6,277 nucleotides of DNA, taken from IMG/VR virus record IMGVR_UViG_2690316166_000005, one strand, 5' to 3'. Source of the DNA: a virus. Its lineage: Duplodnaviria; Heunggongvirae; Uroviricota; Caudoviricetes. A program made the position numbers and the translations under genes. The notes beneath the pieces are model-generated. The model had not been told where the DNA came from. It worked only from the letters and a program-made list of their open reading frames with translations, and did not search any database. Shown here one piece after another: positions 1 to 6,277 of this stretch (within the stretch, counting starts at the first letter, position 1; each line of letters starts with the position of its first letter).

Positions 1-117
1 GCCATGATTCGCCATATCACAAAGGCGGAGTTATCCCGCGTGGAGATAGTCGAGCTGCTCAGTCAGGAGTCGGAAAAATTTCACAATATCGGATTGTCTC
101 GCGGGGAGGTGCTTTGA
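1..117 (+). CDS. C-terminal fragment of an upstream phage early-region ORF (hypothetical protein); 5' end lies outside the window
   Basis: Frame 1 is open from position 1 to a TGA at 115-117 (translation ...[38 protein letters not shown]). The stop overlaps the next start as TGATG (TGA 115-117, ATG 117-119), typical of translational coupling in phage operons. Too short to appear in the ORF track; product unknown. Confidence 0.35.
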
Positions 118-416
118 TGTCCTGTTCTCATTCAGTTGTATTACTGAATAACGCCTTAAAAATCGCCGTTATGAAAAATGGCGACTTGTCTCTTATTCAA
201 CTTTGTCTTGATAAAGAAAAACGCGACATCACTGAATCTGTTATCGCGATTTATCAGAATGAATTAAACCTCCTGTCTGATGTGGTCAATTTACTTGTTA
301 AACGCGCTGTATTCCACAAGCAAATTTCCTCAGTGGATGAACTGACAAAATTAACGACAGAACTTGCCAGTTATTGCGCTGATGTATCCAGGAAACTTAA
401 CGATAAAAGGAGCTGA
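117..416 (+). CDS. hypothetical small protein of the P2-like early operon (~99 aa)
   Basis: ORF track 114..416; the ATG at 117 is preferred over the TTG at 114 because a GGGGAGG Shine-Dalgarno sits ~7 nt upstream. Stop TGA 414-416. Same strand and tight spacing with flanking genes. No recognisable motif. Confidence 0.6.
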   Translation: MSCSHSVVLLNNALKIAVMKNGDLSLIQLCLDKEKRDITESVIAIYQNELNLLSDVVNLLVKRAVFHKQISSVDELTKLTTELASYCADVSRKLNDKRS

Positions 417-418
417 TA

Positions 419-643
419 ATGCCGGACAACATAGATTTTATTCAGGAACAACAGGCTGAATTACTGGAGCGCCAGATTAACGCGGCAAGGGTAAAACATT
501 GCGGTGCTTCTGCGCTGGTTTGCGAAGAGTGTGACGCGCCAATTCCTGCTGCCCGTCGTGCGGCTTATCCGTCAGCCACGCGTTGTGTTTCCTGTCAGTC
601 AGTCTTTGAAGCAAAAAACAAACATTACCGGAGAACGGCATGA
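419..643 (+). CDS. TraR/DksA-family C4-type zinc-finger protein (74 aa)
   Basis: Strong SD AAGGAG (407-412) 6 nt before ATG 419. The protein has two CxxC pairs (C-E-E-C ... C-V-S-C) about 20 residues apart near the C-terminus and a helical N-terminus, the pattern of TraR/DksA zinc fingers; such a gene is found just upstream of the replication gene in P2-like phages. Stop TGA 641-643 overlaps the next ATG (ATGA). Confidence 0.85.
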   Translation: MPDNIDFIQEQQAELLERQINAARVKHCGASALVCEECDAPIPAARRAAYPSATRCVSCQSVFEAKNKHYRRTA

Positions 644-915
644 GTATTCGTATTGAAATTGGCGAACGTTATGTCGTTACCAGTGACAGCTTCCAGTTTA
701 TTCTCCACGAGAAAAAGAGAGCGGAAAGCGGTAAAAACGCCGGTCAGGAATGGCTGGCGGTGGTTGGTTATTACCCGAAATTAAGCCAGCTCGTTTCCGG
801 CCTGATGCATCACGATATTCTGACCGGAAGCGCAAAGTCTTTTGCTGATTTAAACGCGCAGGTTGAGCAACTCAGCAAGCGTTGTTCAGAGGCTTTTGGC
901 TCATATGGCCGTTAA
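640..915 (+). CDS. hypothetical small phage protein (91 aa)
   Basis: ATG 640 overlaps the preceding stop (ATGA at 640-643), with a GGAGAA SD-like sequence upstream. Ends TAA 913-915, overlapping the start of the replication gene. No recognisable motif. Confidence 0.6.
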   Translation: MSIRIEIGERYVVTSDSFQFILHEKKRAESGKNAGQEWLAVVGYYPKLSQLVSGLMHHDILTGSAKSFADLNAQVEQLSKRCSEAFGSYGR

Positions 916-3202
916 AGCCTCCGGGCGTTTTGTCCCTCCGTCAGCATTTGCTGCAGGCACCGGTAAGGCGTTTACCGGTGCTTATGCATGGAACGCGCCA
1001 CGCGAGGCTGTCGGGCGCGAAAGACCCCTTACACGTGACGAGATGCGTCAGGTGCAAGGTGTTTTATCCACGATTAACCGCCTGCCTTACTTTTTGCGCT
1101 CGCTGTTTACGTCACGCTATGACTACATCCGGCGCAATAAAAGCCCGGTGCACGGGTTTTATTTCCTCACATCCACTTTTCAGCGTCGTTTATGGCCGCG
1201 CATTGAGCGTGTGAATCAGCGCCATGAAATGAACACCGACGCGTCGATGCTGTTTCTGGCTGAGCGTGACCACTATGCGCGCCTGCCGGGAATGAATGAC
1301 AAGGAGCTGAAAAAGTTTGCCGCCCGTATCTCATCGCAGCTTTTCATGATGTATGAGGAACTCAGCGATGCCTGGGTGGATGCGCATGGCGAAAAAGAAT
1401 CGCTGTTTACGGATGAGGCGCAGGCTCACCTCTATGGTCATGTTGCTGGCGCTGCACGTGCTTTCAATATTTCCCCTCTCTACTGGAAAAAATACCGTAA
1501 AGGACAGATGACCACGAGGCAGGCATATTCTGCCATTGCCCGTCTGTTTAACGATGAGTGGTGGATTAGTCAGCTTAAAGGCCAGCGTATGCGCTGGCAT
1601 GAGGCGTTACTGATTGCTGTCGGGGAGGTCAATAAAGACCGTTCTCCTTATGCCAGTAAACATGCCATTCGTGATGTGCGTGCACGCCGCCAGGCAAATC
1701 TGGAATTTCTTAAATCGTGTGATCTCGAAAACAGGGAAACAGGCGAGCGCATCGACCTTATCAGTAAGGTGATGGGCAGTATTTCTAATCCTGAAATTCG
1801 CCGGATGGAGCTGATGAACACCATTGCCGGTATTGAGCGTTACGCCGCCGCAGAAGGTGATGTGGGGATGTTTATCACGCTGACCGCGCCGTCAAAGTAT
1901 CACCCGACACGTCAGGTTGGAAAAGGCGAAAGTAAAACCGTCCAGCTAAATCACGGCTGGAACGATGAGGCATTTAATCCAAAGGATGCGCAGCGTTATC
2001 TCTGCCGTATCTGGAGCCTGATGCGCACGGCATTCAAGGATAATGATTTACAGGTCTACGGTTTGCGAGTCGTCGAGCCACACCACGACGGAACGCCGCA
2101 CTGGCATATGATGCTTTTTTGTAATCCACGCCAGCGTAACCAGATTATCGAAATCATGCGTCGCTACGCGCTCAAAGAGGATGGCGACGAAAGAGGAGCT
2201 GCGCGAAACCGTTTTCAGGCAAAACATCTTAATCGGGGCGGTGCTGCGGGGTATATCGCGAAATACATCTCAAAAAATATCGACGGCTATGCACTGGATG
2301 GGCAGCTCGATAACGATAGCGGCAGACCGCTGAAAGATACTGCCGCGGCTGTTACCGCATGGGCGTCAACGTGGCGCATTCCGCAATTTAAAACGGTTGG
2401 CCTGCCGACAATGGGGGCTTACCGTGAACTACGCAAATTGCCTCGCGGCGTCAGCATTGCTGATGAGTTTGACGAGCGCGTCGAGGCTGCACGCGCCGCC
2501 GCAGACAGTGGTGATTTTGCGCTGTATATCAGCGCGCAGGGTGGGGCAAATGTCCCGCGCGATTGTCAGACTGTCAGGGTCGCCCGTAGTCCGTCGGATG
2601 AAGTTAACGAGTACGAGGAAGAAGTCGAGAGAGTGGTCGGCATTTACGCGCCGCATCTCGGCGCGCGTCATATTCATATCACCAGAACGACGGACTGGCG
2701 CATTGTTCCGAAAGTGCCGGTCGTTGAGCCTTTGACTTTAAAAAGCGGCATCGCCGCGCCTCGGAGTCCTGTCAATAACTGTGGAAAGCTCACTGGTGGT
2801 GATACTTCGTTACCGGCTCCCACACCTTCTGAGCACGCCGCAGCAGTGCTTAATCTGGTAGATGACGGTGTTATCGAATGGAATGACCCGGAGGTTGTGA
2901 GGGCGCTCAGAGGTGCATTAAAACACGGACTGAGAAGACCAAACCGTCAGCAAAGAAACGGAAGCCCGTTAAAACCGCATGAAATAGCGCCATCGGCCAG
3001 ACTGACCCGGTCGGAACGAATGCAAATTACCCGTATCCGCGTTGACCTTGCTCAGAACGGTATCAGGCCGCAGCGATGGGAGCTTGAGGTGCTGGCGCGT
3101 GGGGCAACCGTAAATTATGACGGGAAAAAATTCACTTACCCGCTCGCTGATGAGTGGTCGGGATTCTCAACAGTATTAGAGTCAAACTCAGTGAAGCGTT
3201 AA
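905..3202 (+). CDS. A: rolling-circle replication initiation endonuclease, P2 gpA-like (HUH superfamily), ~765 aa from ATG 905
   Basis: Long ORF (track 863..3202, which begins at a TTG). HUH motif P-H-W-H-M-M-L-F encoded at 2099-2107. Paired catalytic tyrosines in G-Y-I-A-K-Y-I-S-K (Tyr codons 2252-2254 and 2264-2266), the same YxxKY spacing as phiX174 gpA and P2 gpA. The size (~765 aa) and the N-terminus MAVKASGRF... are consistent with my recollection of P2 gpA. Start set at ATG 905, which overlaps the upstream ORF by 11 nt; TTG 863 is an alternative. Confidence 0.9.
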   Translation: MAVKASGRFVPPSAFAAGTGKAFTGAYAWNAPREAVGRERPLTRDEMRQVQGVLSTINRLPYFLRSLFTSRYDYIRRNKSPVHGFYFLTSTFQRRLWPRIERVNQRHEMNTDASMLFLAERDHYARLPGMNDKELKKFAARISSQLFMMYEELSDAWVDAHGEKESLFTDEAQAHLYGHVAGAARAFNISPLYWKKYRKGQMTTRQAYSAIARLFNDEWWISQLKGQRMRWHEALLIAVGEVNKDRSPYASKHAIRDVRARRQANLEFLKSCDLENRETGERIDLISKVMGSISNPEIRRMELMNTIAGIERYAAAEGDVGMFITLTAPSKYHPTRQVGKGESKTVQLNHGWNDEAFNPKDAQRYLCRIWSLMRTAFKDNDLQVYGLRVVEPHHDGTPHWHMMLFCNPRQRNQIIEIMRRYALKEDGDERGAARNRFQAKHLNRGGAAGYIAKYISKNIDGYALDGQLDNDSGRPLKDTAAAVTAWASTWRIPQFKTVGLPTMGAYRELRKLPRGVSIADEFDERVEAARAAADSGDFALYISAQGGANVPRDCQTVRVARSPSDEVNEYEEEVERVVGIYAPHLGARHIHITRTTDWRIVPKVPVVEPLTLKSGIAAPRSPVNNCGKLTGGDTSLPAPTPSEHAAAVLNLVDDGVIEWNDPEVVRALRGALKHGLRRPNRQQRNGSPLKPHEIAPSARLTRSERMQITRIRVDLAQNGIRPQRWELEVLARGATVNYDGKKFTYPLADEWSGFSTVLESNSVKR
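2755..2785 (+). other. candidate rolling-circle origin (nick site) embedded in the gpA coding sequence
   Basis: In P2 the origin cleaved by gpA lies inside the 3' part of gene A. The segment GCGCCTCGGAGTCCTGTCAATAACTG here resembles my unverified recollection of the P2 ori/nick region and sits about 80% of the way through the gene. Position is inferred, not demonstrated. Confidence 0.25.
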
Positions 3203-3240
3203 CTCAATAAATATGAGTTTATAAGTTAGGCCTCGAGATT

Positions 3241-3285
3241 TTGTAGAAAGGGATGTATACTGAGTATCGTATAGATTTGGAGTGA
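3241..3285 (+). promoter_or_regulatory. putative promoter and ribosome-binding region for the methyltransferase gene
   Basis: AT-rich 83-bp intergenic spacer after the gpA stop. -10-like hexamers TATACT (3256-3261) and TATAGA (3270-3275) and a -35-like TTGTAG (3241-3246) are present, but spacing is non-canonical. SD GGAG (3279-3282) lies 6 nt upstream of ATG 3289. Confidence 0.3.
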
Positions 3286-3288
3286 GTG

Positions 3289-4311
3289 ATGACTGTAAAG
3301 GTGATAGACCTTTTTTGTGGTGCTGGCGGATTAACTCATGGTTTGCAGCTTGCGGGGCTTGATGTCGTTGCAGGCATTGACCTTGAGGGGGAATGTAGGT
3401 TTCCCTATGAAAGAAACAATAAATCTAAGTTTATTGAGCAAGATATCGCTAAAGTAACAAAAGAGGAACTGCTGAGGCTTTATGGTGATGCGTCTGTAAA
3501 AGTATTGGCAGGATGCGCACCTTGCCAACCTTTTTCAAAATATACTCAAGGAAAAGATAAGGCTGATGATAAAAAATGGCCTCTTCTTTATGAGTTCGAA
3601 CGTTTAATTCGCGAAGTATCTCCAGAAATCGTAACAATGGAGAACGTTCCTGATGTAACTAAACATAAAGTTTATAATGATTTTTATAATTCATTGTTAA
3701 AGTTGGGCTATTATGTTTGGGCGTCTAAGATTGATTGTGTCGAATATGGAATCCCACAAAACCGTTCCCGTCATGTATTGTTGGCCTCAAAATTGGGGGC
3801 GATTGAGTTAGTAAAACGTGACGATGTTATTTTGAAAACAGTTAGAGATGCAATAGGAAATCTTCCTCCATTAGAAGATGGCCAAACAGATCCAAATGAT
3901 ATATTACATAGAGCCAGTAAATTAAATCCGATTAATAAAAAAAGAATTATACACTCTGTTCCTGGTGGTACATGGAAGGACTGGCCGAAAGAGTTGGTTG
4001 CCGCTTGTCATATGAAATCCAGCGGTAAAGGGTATGCTAGTGTATATGGGCGCATGTCTTGGGATAAGCCAAGTCCAACAATTACAACTCTTTGTTATGG
4101 TTTCGGGAATGGGCGTTTTGGACATCCAGAACAGCATAGAGCGATTTCTCTTAGAGAGGCTGCTTTATTGCAAACTTTCCCGATGGATTATATTTTTGTA
4201 GAAGACAAAAACAAGTTTGTTATAAGAAGTATTGGGAAAATGATAGGTAATGCTGTTCCTGTGGAACTAGGAAAAGCAATTGGGCAATCAATCAAGAACC
4301 ATTTAGAATGA
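3289..4311 (+). CDS. DNA (cytosine-5)-methyltransferase (C5-MTase), ~340 aa
   Basis: Canonical C5-MTase motifs in the canonical order: motif I F-C-G-A-G-G (3313-3330, AdoMet binding); motif IV G-C-A-P-C-Q-P-F-S with the catalytic Cys in PCQ (3520-3528); motif VI E-N-V (3640-3648); motif VIII Q-N-R-S-R; C-terminal motif X G-N-A-V-P-V. ATG 3289 is preferred over GTG 3286 on SD spacing. Stop TGA 4309-4311. Confidence 0.9.
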   Translation: MTVKVIDLFCGAGGLTHGLQLAGLDVVAGIDLEGECRFPYERNNKSKFIEQDIAKVTKEELLRLYGDASVKVLAGCAPCQPFSKYTQGKDKADDKKWPLLYEFERLIREVSPEIVTMENVPDVTKHKVYNDFYNSLLKLGYYVWASKIDCVEYGIPQNRSRHVLLASKLGAIELVKRDDVILKTVRDAIGNLPPLEDGQTDPNDILHRASKLNPINKKRIIHSVPGGTWKDWPKELVAACHMKSSGKGYASVYGRMSWDKPSPTITTLCYGFGNGRFGHPEQHRAISLREAALLQTFPMDYIFVEDKNKFVIRSIGKMIGNAVPVELGKAIGQSIKNHLE

Positions 4312-4312
4312 T

Positions 4313-4340
4313 AAAATGGCCTGCTTTACAGGCCTTATAA
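4313..4340. terminator. putative bidirectional intrinsic terminator between convergent genes
   Basis: Perfect inverted repeat GGCCTG (4318-4323) / CAGGCC (4329-4334) with a 5-nt loop, flanked by an A-run on one side and T-rich sequence on the other. It lies exactly between the MTase stop (4311) and the HEPN gene stop (4341). The stem is short (6 bp), so strength is uncertain. Confidence 0.45.
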
Positions 4341-5021
4341 CTATTGTTCTAAATATTCATTATTATTTATATAGTGCTCTATATTATTCACGATAGCATC
4401 AAGATAGGCGATTACTTCTAATGAAATATTCTCTAAGTCCTGATATGAAACATTTTTTCCAATCTCAGCAAATGATACATTGCCATGAGATAAATCATTA
4501 CGATGTTGTTTAACAGTGGCTAATTTTTCACCATGTTTAGTGTGAGTGTAATCGGAATGTGTAGAAAAACCATATATTTTCGATTTTTCTTTGATTTCCT
4601 CTCTATCAATATTTCCTGAGAATATTTTCTTTTTGTTGAACGTGCCATAAGATATACCGCAAGATATACCTTTGGTAAGGTGATTAACTAAACTTTCAAC
4701 ATTTACAGATTCATTTTTTAATCTTTTTAATATTTCTGACCTGAGATTTTTCCTGAGTTTGTCAAATTCTACGTTTCTATCATAAATAGTCTCATGAATA
4801 AGGCAGATAGCTTCTCTCATTGTTGATTCAATGAGGTTATATAACAGTATATATACTGCTCCCTTTAGAGTTTTTCGTGATTGAGCAGTAATGGAGAACT
4901 TATGTTCTTTATCATCAGCTGATATCAGTTCTGCACCGGCATACTCAATAAATTTCAAAAGATCCAAATAGGCCAAGATCTCTCCTGACCTTTCGTCAAA
5001 ATCCTCACGAAAACGATCCAT
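4341..5021 (-). CDS. HEPN-domain protein (MAE_28990/MAE_18760-like predicted RNase), 226 aa
   Basis: ATG at 5019-5021 (- strand) with an AGAGGA SD 5 nt upstream, located inside the 3' end of the upstream gene. Only 1 nt separates the upstream TAA (5023-5025) from this ATG. Contains an Rx4H HEPN-type motif, H-R-N-D-L-S-H-G (Arg codon 4500-4502, His codon 4485-4487), near the C-terminal third of a small, predicted all-helical protein. Stop TAG 4341-4343. Confidence 0.75.
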   Translation of the reverse strand: MDRFREDFDERSGEILAYLDLLKFIEYAGAELISADDKEHKFSITAQSRKTLKGAVYILLYNLIESTMREAICLIHETIYDRNVEFDKLRKNLRSEILKRLKNESVNVESLVNHLTKGISCGISYGTFNKKKIFSGNIDREEIKEKSKIYGFSTHSDYTHTKHGEKLATVKQHRNDLSHGNVSFAEIGKNVSYQDLENISLEVIAYLDAIVNNIEHYINNNEYLEQ

Positions 5022-5022
5022 G

Positions 5023-6165
5023 TTAATCCTCTAATAATTTATCCCGAACATATTCAATTCGTTCAATTACCTTCACGCGACTATTAGCTCCGTCGGAAGT
5101 GGTCAATCGTTTGAATTCTTCTGAGCTTAGCCAATCTAAGTTCTTGGGAACAAGGTCAGGGACTTCACGTAATGCAAGTGCTGCGCCAACAGCGAGAGAT
5201 TCGAATCTAACTCGAGGTGTAGATTTTGCAGTAATAGTTTTCTTGAATCCTGCTGGGAAATAGTTTTCAACAAAAGATAGAACATTAGCAAACTCTTGTT
5301 TCATTGAGTTTTGTTTAGTTTCGTCTATATCTCGATTTTCTGACATATAGTCATTTAGAAAATCCCGTACGGAATGATCAAAGTTCTTGTACTTATCTAC
5401 GTAGGCAAAGAATCTTAATGTAAATTCTAACCGTTCATCTCGTTTTTCTTTAGTCTGAGATAAAGGTGCTAATTCTTTAAATTTAGGTATTGTTGAGCAT
5501 GGCTTAATAACCTGTGTATATAAATTTGTTGAACCAAGTTCTGATCCTTTACGGACTTCCATATCTTTCAATATATCGCTGCCAGAGTTAATACGCTCAA
5601 AAAGATCTCTACGGGTTTCTTCATTGCATTTAGAACTCAATTCTATAACGCGGACAGGAATTCTCATGAAACGACGTTGACGTGATAATGGTAAATCTTG
5701 GAATTTGAAACCATTAAGGACGTCTAAAGATTTCAGGTCTTGTAAAACTAATTCATTTTGGATAAAAGCGTGTATAGTCCTAACTCGTTGTGAGCCATCA
5801 ACAATCTCAATTCGCCCATCTAAATCGGGATCTTCGGAGAGAACATCTGCTATAAATATATATGGTATAGGAAAACCCAAAATCAAAGACTCTATCAATT
5901 TTGATTGTCTTTTTTCACTCCAAACAAAATCCCTTTGATAATCAGGAACAAAGAGTTCGTTAGTATCATCCTCTAATCCGTTATGATACTTATTAACTAA
6001 TAACTCAACGGTAAATTCTTTGGTCTCAAAATCCACATCCTTTTGCTCAGCACGAATTTGCTCTTCAGCGTTTTGCTTTATCACCTCTAGCTGAGCAAGC
6101 AACTCTGCTCTTTTCTTGGCATTATCTTCATTTTCTAGTTGAGATTTTAAATCAATAATGTCCAT
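5023..6165 (-). CDS. DUF262 (ParB-like / GmrS-like N-terminal domain) protein, ~380 aa
   Basis: ORF track 5023..6183, beginning at a TTG. ATG at 6163-6165 (- strand) is preferred because an AAGGGAA SD lies 7 nt upstream. Hallmark DUF262 motifs: V-P-D-Y-Q-R-D-F-V-W (DYQR codons 5932-5943) and I-V-D-G-S-Q-R (DGSQR codons 5785-5799, the DGQQR-type motif). No HNH/DUF1524-like motif was recognised in the C-terminal half. Confidence 0.8.
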   Translation of the reverse strand: MDIIDLKSQLENEDNAKKRAELLAQLEVIKQNAEEQIRAEQKDVDFETKEFTVELLVNKYHNGLEDDTNELFVPDYQRDFVWSEKRQSKLIESLILGFPIPYIFIADVLSEDPDLDGRIEIVDGSQRVRTIHAFIQNELVLQDLKSLDVLNGFKFQDLPLSRQRRFMRIPVRVIELSSKCNEETRRDLFERINSGSDILKDMEVRKGSELGSTNLYTQVIKPCSTIPKFKELAPLSQTKEKRDERLEFTLRFFAYVDKYKNFDHSVRDFLNDYMSENRDIDETKQNSMKQEFANVLSFVENYFPAGFKKTITAKSTPRVRFESLAVGAALALREVPDLVPKNLDWLSSEEFKRLTTSDGANSRVKVIERIEYVRDKLLED

Positions 6166-6277
6166 GTCTAGTTCCCTTAACAAGTGTTAAAAATTGAAGC
6201 GGATAGCATACCGCATAGATCATGAAAAATGCCATCATGTGCATGGTGCGTATTCCGCTCTATTCGATCACGGATTG

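Follow-up and report, generated by a model that had tools for sequence, protein, structure and literature searches.

The window analysed here, a 6,277-nt stretch of the IMG/VR virus record IMGVR_UViG_2690316166_000005 (Caudoviricetes), holds between positions 3289 and 6165 a gene for a C5-cytosine DNA methyltransferase and, tail-to-tail with it, an operon coding for a DUF262 protein and a protein of the HEPN_MAE_28990 family. The three genes and the hairpin that lies between the two units are as follows.

3289–4311, plus strand: C5-cytosine DNA methyltransferase of 340 amino acids (aa), the predicted self-marking component (PF00145 at 3.4e-58 over the full length; TIGR00675 at 1.4e-37; also matched by the PADLOC models DrmMII and MTase_II)
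4318–4334, no strand assigned: GC-rich hairpin GGCCTG-CTTTA-CAGGCC in the 29-nt gap between the convergent methyltransferase and HEPN stop codons
4341–5021, minus strand: HEPN_MAE_28990-family protein of 226 aa, the predicted ribonuclease (RNase) effector (PF18737 at 5.8e-29, scoring 102 bits where 26.8 is the cut-off; PF18735 at 8e-9)
5023–6165, minus strand: DUF262 protein of 380 aa, a nucleoside triphosphatase (NTPase) of the ParB/GmrSD_N type, NsnA-like, encoded by the operon's first gene and predicted to act as DNA sensor or switch (PF03235 GmrSD_N at 8.2e-26)

An initial annotation of the window had described a complete methyltransferase with intact key motifs, a tail-to-tail arrangement with the DUF262-HEPN operon, a hairpin between the two units and an AT-rich island around them, and all of these features are borne out. 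The enzyme shows the motifs FCGAGG (I), PCQPFS (IV, with the catalytic Cys), ENV (VI), QNRSR (VIII) and GNAVP (X), which align to M.HaeIII. It runs on the plus strand from 3289 to 4311 and meets the operon, which runs on the minus strand from 6165 to 4341. The G+C content is 0.30–0.40 across positions 3200–6200 versus 0.50–0.58 in the P2 backbone. On 754 contigs there is a protein, named from Shigella sonnei, to which the methyltransferase is 100% identical. Solved relatives did not reveal the target motif of the enzyme: the matches to M.HaeIII, M.HhaI and SpCmoX cover the catalytic core, that to DNMT1 residues 210–338.

The hairpin at 4318–4334 has a folding energy of -10.8 kcal/mol (z = -4.3), none of 200 shuffled sequences folds as well, and a scan for terminator-like elements flags it on the minus strand. 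It is found at the same position in related enterobacterial cassettes, where compensatory changes occur (L096, L099), and is missing where the methylase and HEPN genes overlap (L083, L087). The element is probably a bidirectional terminator.

In the HEPN protein the Rx4H motif, RNDLSH, is invariant among 27 diverse homologues (alignment A1), and the blocks FSGNID and YNLIES are also conserved. No PADLOC family was matched at E <= 1 by this protein or by four of its relatives. The stop codon of the DUF262 gene and the ATG of the HEPN gene are separated by one base; therefore the two genes are read as one operon, with translational coupling. Neither an Rfam match at E <= 1 nor any meaningful repeat was found near the operon when we looked for an RNA antitoxin or repeats of the kind found in AbiF/ToxI-type control. 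The DUF262 protein has the conserved motifs DGSQR and PDYQRDFVW. Its best PADLOC match is NsnA (1.7e-54, full length, profile positions 25–376 of 385), followed by PD-T4-2_A (PDLC04027, 2.5e-35), and matches to SspE, HEC-05 and HEC-06 are limited to the N-terminal ~70 residues. An AlphaFold2 model (predicted local distance difference test 78, predicted template modelling score 0.50) places an N-terminal helix before an alpha/beta core, and its C-terminal half is all-helical; this fits the architecture described for NsnA, in which ParB-DUF262 is joined to a helical DNA-binding domain (ParBDB). Sequence searches of the Protein Data Bank (PDB) with the DUF262 protein and with a HEPN profile found no relative. 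As a side observation, the PADLOC REase_II model PDLC03418 weakly matches the window DUF262 protein and its relatives, with E-values from 9e-6 to 6e-12 (9.4e-6 for the window protein), which implies that some type II restriction enzyme listed in REBASE is a DUF262 protein.

The association of the methylase with the DUF262-HEPN pair was followed from both sides. Starting from HEPN, the 27 homologues were aligned, one genome per species was scanned and the three proteins were placed in 80 loci by tblastn. DUF262 lies directly upstream of HEPN in all 80 species-level loci, although it is truncated in some loci of Microcoleus and Oscillatoriales. A full-length orthologous C5-methylase adjoins the pair in 36 of them and is 50–56% identical to the window enzyme, recognition domain included. 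These 36 loci come from Enterobacterales, Vibrionaceae, Cellvibrionaceae, Pseudoalteromonas, Methylococcales, many cyanobacteria, a metagenome-assembled genome (MAG) of Bacteroidales and two Pyrinomonadales (Acidobacteriota). Starting from the methylase, all nine homologues that were looked up (60–72% identity) adjoin HEPN_MAE_28990 and GmrSD_N; among them are proteins from E. coli, Klebsiella, P. aeruginosa, Pseudomonas, Stenotrophomonas, Shewanella, Halomonas and Vibrio, with loci placed in P2-like prophages (at three different positions), integrase-bounded islands and defence islands. The pair is furthermore present on 11 of 13 related viral contigs. The comparison proposed by the initial annotation, namely whether methylase and pair occur together in other genomes, thus has a positive answer whichever gene is taken as the starting point.

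In total the triad was seen in Gamma-, Beta- and Alphaproteobacteria, Actinomycetota, Cyanobacteria, Bacteroidota and Acidobacteriota, counted here as six phyla. Plasmids of Roseomonas (Alphaproteobacteria) and Rhodococcus (Actinomycetota) carry DUF262, HEPN and methylase in this order on one strand with overlapping stop and start codons; the HEPN protein is there only ~27% identical to that of the window, the methylase still 52%. A Polaromonas (Betaproteobacteria) plasmid has the convergent form, with a methylase that is missing from the plasmid's gene table. Over 60 triads, the methylase is convergent in 55, co-directional and downstream in three, and upstream in two. Because three gene orders occur, the adjacency must have survived rearrangement. 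Pairwise identities are correlated among all components (methylase-DUF262 r = 0.81, methylase-HEPN r = 0.77, DUF262-HEPN r = 0.92), and neighbour-joining trees of methylase and DUF262 show the same major clades. Judged by adjacency and tree shape, methylase, DUF262 and HEPN have been inherited and transferred together as a unit. Chance co-location in hotspots cannot give such a pattern, in view of the adjacency in six phyla, the changes of gene order and the congruent phylogenies. We therefore consider it very probable that the three genes form one functional system.

Alignments show that all three proteins keep their catalytic motifs: those of the methylase are intact in 57 of 58 orthologues, and both DGxQR in DUF262 and RNxLxHG in HEPN are conserved. 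The target-recognition region of the methylase (residues 175–275) is 52–70% identical across phyla and thus as conserved as the catalytic core, so that one short methylated motif is probably common to the whole clade. The methylase is also the most conserved of the three components. A second E. coli P2 allele occupies the same hotspot (L083–L086 in E. coli, L087 in Klebsiella); compared with the window its methylase is 71–72%, its DUF262 protein 44–45% and its HEPN protein 30–32% identical, which fits a faster evolution of the restriction arm. In these loci the 3' ends of the methylase gene and the HEPN gene overlap, and the second-allele methylase was found on 160 contigs. In P. aeruginosa and in two MAGs, one of Bacteroidales and one of Pyrinomonadales, the cassette is accompanied by a gene for the Vsr mismatch-repair protein, and this company suggests that the methylase makes real 5-methylcytosine (m5C) on resident DNA. 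Two methylases nested in the triad clade have other partners, in one case Vsr and a 714-aa GHKL (HATPase_c_3) protein (L100:4998–8569), in the other a 1056-aa SNF2-family helicase (L102:4962–9229). These suggest that the methylase is a portable self-marking module with exchangeable partners of the restriction type.

The combination has been predicted before. Anantharaman et al. (2013; PMC3710099) list in their Table 1 a HEPN-ParB-methylase neighbourhood for the MAE_28990 family, the basis of Pfam PF18737. The same three components are found here, a PF18737 HEPN protein with Rx4-6H, a DUF262 (ParB-fold) gene in the same operon and a DNA methylase 29 nt from the HEPN stop codon; the predicted logic is that of restriction-modification (R-M), and nothing essential differs. 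By its components the window cassette is a member of this neighbourhood. The 2013 entry is a single table line without experiment, gene order, host range or reference to P2 prophages, and full-text literature searches found no experimental study of the triad. The initial annotation had recognised neither this published neighbourhood nor the phage hotspot described below.

Several characterised systems share parts with the cassette. PD-T4-2 (Vassallo et al. 2022; E. coli ECOR65, active against T4) likewise has a DUF262 gene followed by a HEPN gene and stems from a mobile element of E. coli. The window DUF262 protein matches PD-T4-2_A, and the window HEPN protein matches PF18735, the family quoted for PD-T4-2. 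However, PD-T4-2 has no methylase and its two open reading frames (ORFs) occupy 1540 nt versus 1825 nt in the window; the window HEPN protein gives no match to PD-T4-2_B at E <= 1, and its DUF262 partner scores higher against NsnA. With the PD-T4-2_B match missing and a methylase present, identity with PD-T4-2 was rejected. NsnA is the proposed sensor of Menshen (NsnABC; Millman 2022; Li et al. 2025, PMC12065111), and the full-length match indicates the same ParB-DUF262 plus ParBDB architecture for the window protein, but the window has neither the NsnB ATPase nor the NsnC effector and instead carries HEPN and a C5-methylase, so that it is not Menshen either. GmrSD, BrxU and SspE, DUF262-DUF1524 enzymes that are of type IV or sense modification, have in common with the window protein an N-terminal DUF262 NTPase domain, the DGxQR motif (DGSQR in the window) and a link to DNA modification. 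In contrast to them, the window protein is without a DUF1524/HNH nuclease domain, and its effector is a separate HEPN protein; since only PF03235 is detected in its 380 aa, it was not assigned to this group. Moreover, for a simple type IV enzyme dependent on m5C it would be suicidal to come with a C5-methylase of its own, as this system does. PrrC-EcoprrI is a precedent for an RNA-level output coupled to R-M, a HEPN RNase (an anticodon nuclease) embedded with a methylase-containing restriction module; there, however, PrrC has an ABC-ATPase N-domain and lies within hsdMSR (type Ic R-M), whereas in the window HEPN has DUF262 as its partner and a monomeric C5 enzyme serves as methylase. We also considered a classical type II R-M system. 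By its motifs the methyltransferase is predicted to be competent, but no recognised DNase fold is present and HEPN is an RNase fold, so this identity was rejected. Dazbog was likewise rejected on missing components or model matches.

The cassette lies in a P2-like prophage context, bordered by the following features.

863–3202, plus strand: P2 replication endonuclease gene A (PF05840 Phage_GPA at 2e-123), left border of the 'tin/old' cargo hotspot
3203–3288, plus strand: left island junction and upstream region of the methyltransferase gene, with a promoter-like site at 3233–3261 (consensus match only) and the ribosome-binding site GGAG before the ATG at 3289
6166–6246, minus strand: rest of the upstream region of the DUF262-HEPN operon, 81 nt; in intact relatives the native P2 intergenic sequence goes on as far as the portal gene
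6244–6277, no strand assigned: terminal ~31–34 nt of an insertion sequence (IS) of the IS21 family (ISSso4-like), within which the window ends; the insertion lies ~80 nt upstream of the DUF262 ATG

P2-like phages (P2, L-413C and many Peduovirus) match positions 1–3182 at 96–98% identity, and this homology ends at ~3182; from ~3200 to the end no counterpart was found in the phage collection. Complete E. coli genomes contain the same 3-kb stretch between the gene for the P2 replication endonuclease and that for the portal, as checked in L001 (98% identity) and L002 (89%). The portal gene follows the cassette in L001, L002 and L083–L087; the right side of the window itself is interrupted by the IS. 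By this position, from gene A to the portal gene Q, the cassette takes the place of tin/old, a site documented as a store of defence systems by Vassallo et al. and Rousset et al. (PMC9519451, PMC9122126). Over at least 80% of its length the window allele occurs in 9 of 5426 complete E. coli genomes. Aligned to L001 and L090, the sequence from 6166 is identical as far as 6246, where P2 homology stops; the gap from DUF262 to the portal gene is ~370 nt in L001. The terminal sequence at 6244–6277 has 100% matches at many unrelated E. coli sites, and in L104 istB/istA come after such a match, on the minus strand and thus in the direction of the DUF262-HEPN operon. It is thus an IS21-family terminus, by which the 5' end of a group II intron was ruled out, and the insertion probably explains why the contig stops at 6277. 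Some P2-like relatives have extra cargo around gene A that is not in the window (L002:3950–4957 and 7245–7909; L083:5127–5785): a gene of the PAPS-reductase family upstream of A, and a DUF3850/ASCH gene with a small ORF between A and the methylase.

From these data we propose that the three genes are one mobile R-M-like anti-phage cassette, which a P2-like prophage carries in its gpA-portal hotspot as cargo for lysogenic conversion. The C5-methylase would mark resident DNA at one short motif. The DUF262 protein, a predicted ParB/GmrSD_N-type NTPase switch with a helical DNA-binding domain as in Menshen NsnA, would read the methylation state of DNA and react to unmethylated incoming DNA. It would then license the HEPN RNase (Rx4H) to cut RNA, by which phage development would be halted and the infected cell possibly die. 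In a close variant, DUF262 and methylase would act as a first-line restriction and HEPN as a PrrC-like reserve that stays latent until that arm is blocked, the model of Anantharaman et al. for R-M-linked HEPN families (PMC3710099). For this polarity and mechanism, in which the methylase marks self and DUF262 senses unmethylated DNA and licenses the HEPN RNase, we see about an even chance.

A number of observations weigh against this proposal. Among them are pairs without an adjacent methylase. In the genome sample these form one monophyletic cyanobacterial clade beside acnB, clpB, secA or cobN; L015 and L016 are exceptions outside this clade, and L006 was not assessable, as its contig ends just after HEPN. 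In these methylase-less pairs DGxQR is kept in 33 of 33 and RNxLAHG in 41 of 44. A Dolichospermum MAG (L015:7710–7937) retains a 75-aa C-terminal remnant of the methylase, with motifs IX and X only, next to intact DUF262 and HEPN, and in a related Aphanizomenon genome (L016) the methylase is wholly lost. An E. coli IncF plasmid also has the pair without a methylase. PD-T4-2 was cloned without a methylase, was tolerated and protected K-12 and the native host ECOR65 from T4. Without a dedicated methylase next to it, such a pair is therefore not lethal in every case; the explanation is either that a methylase of the host can take over or that methylation is no simple mark of protection. Furthermore, the characterised DUF262 proteins (GmrSD, BrxU, SspE) recognise modified DNA or a self mark, not unmodified DNA, and the sensing polarity could therefore be the opposite of what we propose. 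No DNase domain (DUF1524/HNH, PD-(D/E)XK, GIY-YIG, PLD) was detected in either partner, so that classical restriction by DNA cleavage is not evident. Foldseek comparison of the DUF262 model, which is of moderate quality, with the PDB gave no significant match (the top three were SspE, E 0.2–0.5), so that the model is at most compatible with DUF262. In the window itself, the IS21-family element ~80 nt upstream may have cut off the native promoter, or the operon may be driven by read-through. The initial annotation had suggested one self/non-self system in which methylation protects resident DNA from the DUF262-HEPN module. Of this, the functional linkage is strongly supported by adjacency in six phyla, occurrence on many kinds of mobile elements, the variety of gene orders, congruent phylogenies and kept motifs, while the protection itself, which we infer, is weakened by the intact methylase-less pairs and by the activity of PD-T4-2 alone.

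The surroundings of the methylase-less pairs were also inspected for a methylase of another class, which was ruled out: the conserved ORFs of ~880 aa that lie upstream code for aconitase B, ClpB and SecA, all of them housekeeping neighbours. In Nostocales the pairs show conserved synteny directly downstream of aconitase B (cyanobacterial loci including L021, L022, L026, L032, L035 and L044). In Microcoleus they are located downstream of clpB, several with a truncated DUF262 of ~177 aa. Judged by this context, the cyanobacterial pairs seem to be a chromosomal version that is passed on vertically and is in part decaying.

The opposite polarity can be formulated after SspABCD-SspE, in which the DUF262 domain senses the phosphorothioate mark that the host itself sets, with a stimulating effect on its activity. 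DUF262 would bind the m5C sites that the methylase sets on the resident chromosome, by which the NTPase switch would be positioned, licensed or stimulated, HEPN would fire on infection cues other than an unmethylated site, and loss of the methylase would silence the system instead of killing the cell. GmrSD and BrxU, whose DUF262 domains also read modified DNA, agree with such a positive cue, as do the tolerated loss of the methylase in L015/L016 and at the base of the cyanobacterial clade and the SspE matches, not significant, at the top of the Foldseek result. However, the methylase-less clade has kept ORFs and catalytic motifs over many genera, which is unexpected for a silenced system if no methylase of the host takes over; related methylases from this clade are paired with GHKL and SNF2 proteins, partners that are typical of restriction arms; and no reader domain of the SRA, EVE or ASCH type was detected for the putative m5C binding. 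We regard this explanation as rather unlikely.

A second alternative is a two-tier, PrrC-like system, in which the methylase and DUF262, taken as a 'ParB nuclease', are an R-M pair directed against unmethylated DNA, and a latent HEPN RNase, kept inactive by this pair, is freed only when an anti-restriction factor of the phage disables it. Anantharaman et al. (PMC3710099) proposed in general that R-M-linked HEPN RNases are a second line of defence, and this model includes the MAE_28990 family. The weak REase_II matches of DUF262 proteins mentioned above point in the same direction, and the co-evolution of DUF262 with HEPN, the tightest of the three correlations, together with their coupling would be compatible with a physical complex. 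Against it, characterised DUF262 domains are NTPases with the nuclease activity in a separate DUF1524 domain, not found here, no anti-restriction trigger is known, and the PD-T4-2 pair defends without any methylase. This two-tier arrangement appears to us improbable.

That the two units are independent neighbours, an orphan phage-borne anti-restriction or epigenetic methylase next to a self-contained PD-T4-2-like pair, possibly modification-dependent, is very improbable: hotspots do gather defence genes, methylase-less pairs exist, PD-T4-2 works alone and the two convergent units have separate promoters in most loci, but in six phyla the same methylase clade is found next to this pair, also outside phages on chromosomes, plasmids and integrative elements, the adjacency outlasts changes of gene order up to overlapping co-directional operons, the phylogenies are congruent and nearly every methylase-first locus carries the pair. 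The suggestion of the initial annotation that the methylase is an independent orphan protecting phage DNA from host restriction is thus not supported.

Returning to the proposed methylation-gated cassette, a more far-reaching version can be put forward tentatively, and we hold it for possible but doubtful. The system would be an R-M system of a new functional type, in which C5-methylation at a motif fixed across six phyla gates, via the DUF262 NTPase switch, a DNase-free, abortive-type response at the RNA level by HEPN. The effector pair would be fast-evolving (32–45% identity between the two E. coli P2 alleles) compared with the methylase (71%), and the chromosomal cyanobacterial versions would rely on a housekeeping methylase.

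The window itself is ordinary in kind: defence cargo in a known P2 hotspot, belonging to a neighbourhood predicted in 2013. As PADLOC v2.0.0 has no model for this HEPN family, the cassette is unnamed in that catalogue. The comparative dataset points to constructs worth comparing, namely methylase-linked clades, methylase-less clades and methylases with swapped partners. If the proposal is true, a common prophage-borne cassette, present in E. coli/Shigella, Klebsiella, Salmonella, Pseudomonas, Vibrio, cyanobacteria and others, would show DNA methylation gating an RNase-based immune response, and the DUF262 sensor family (Menshen, PD-T4-2, Dazbog) would gain a tractable ligand, methylated versus unmethylated DNA.

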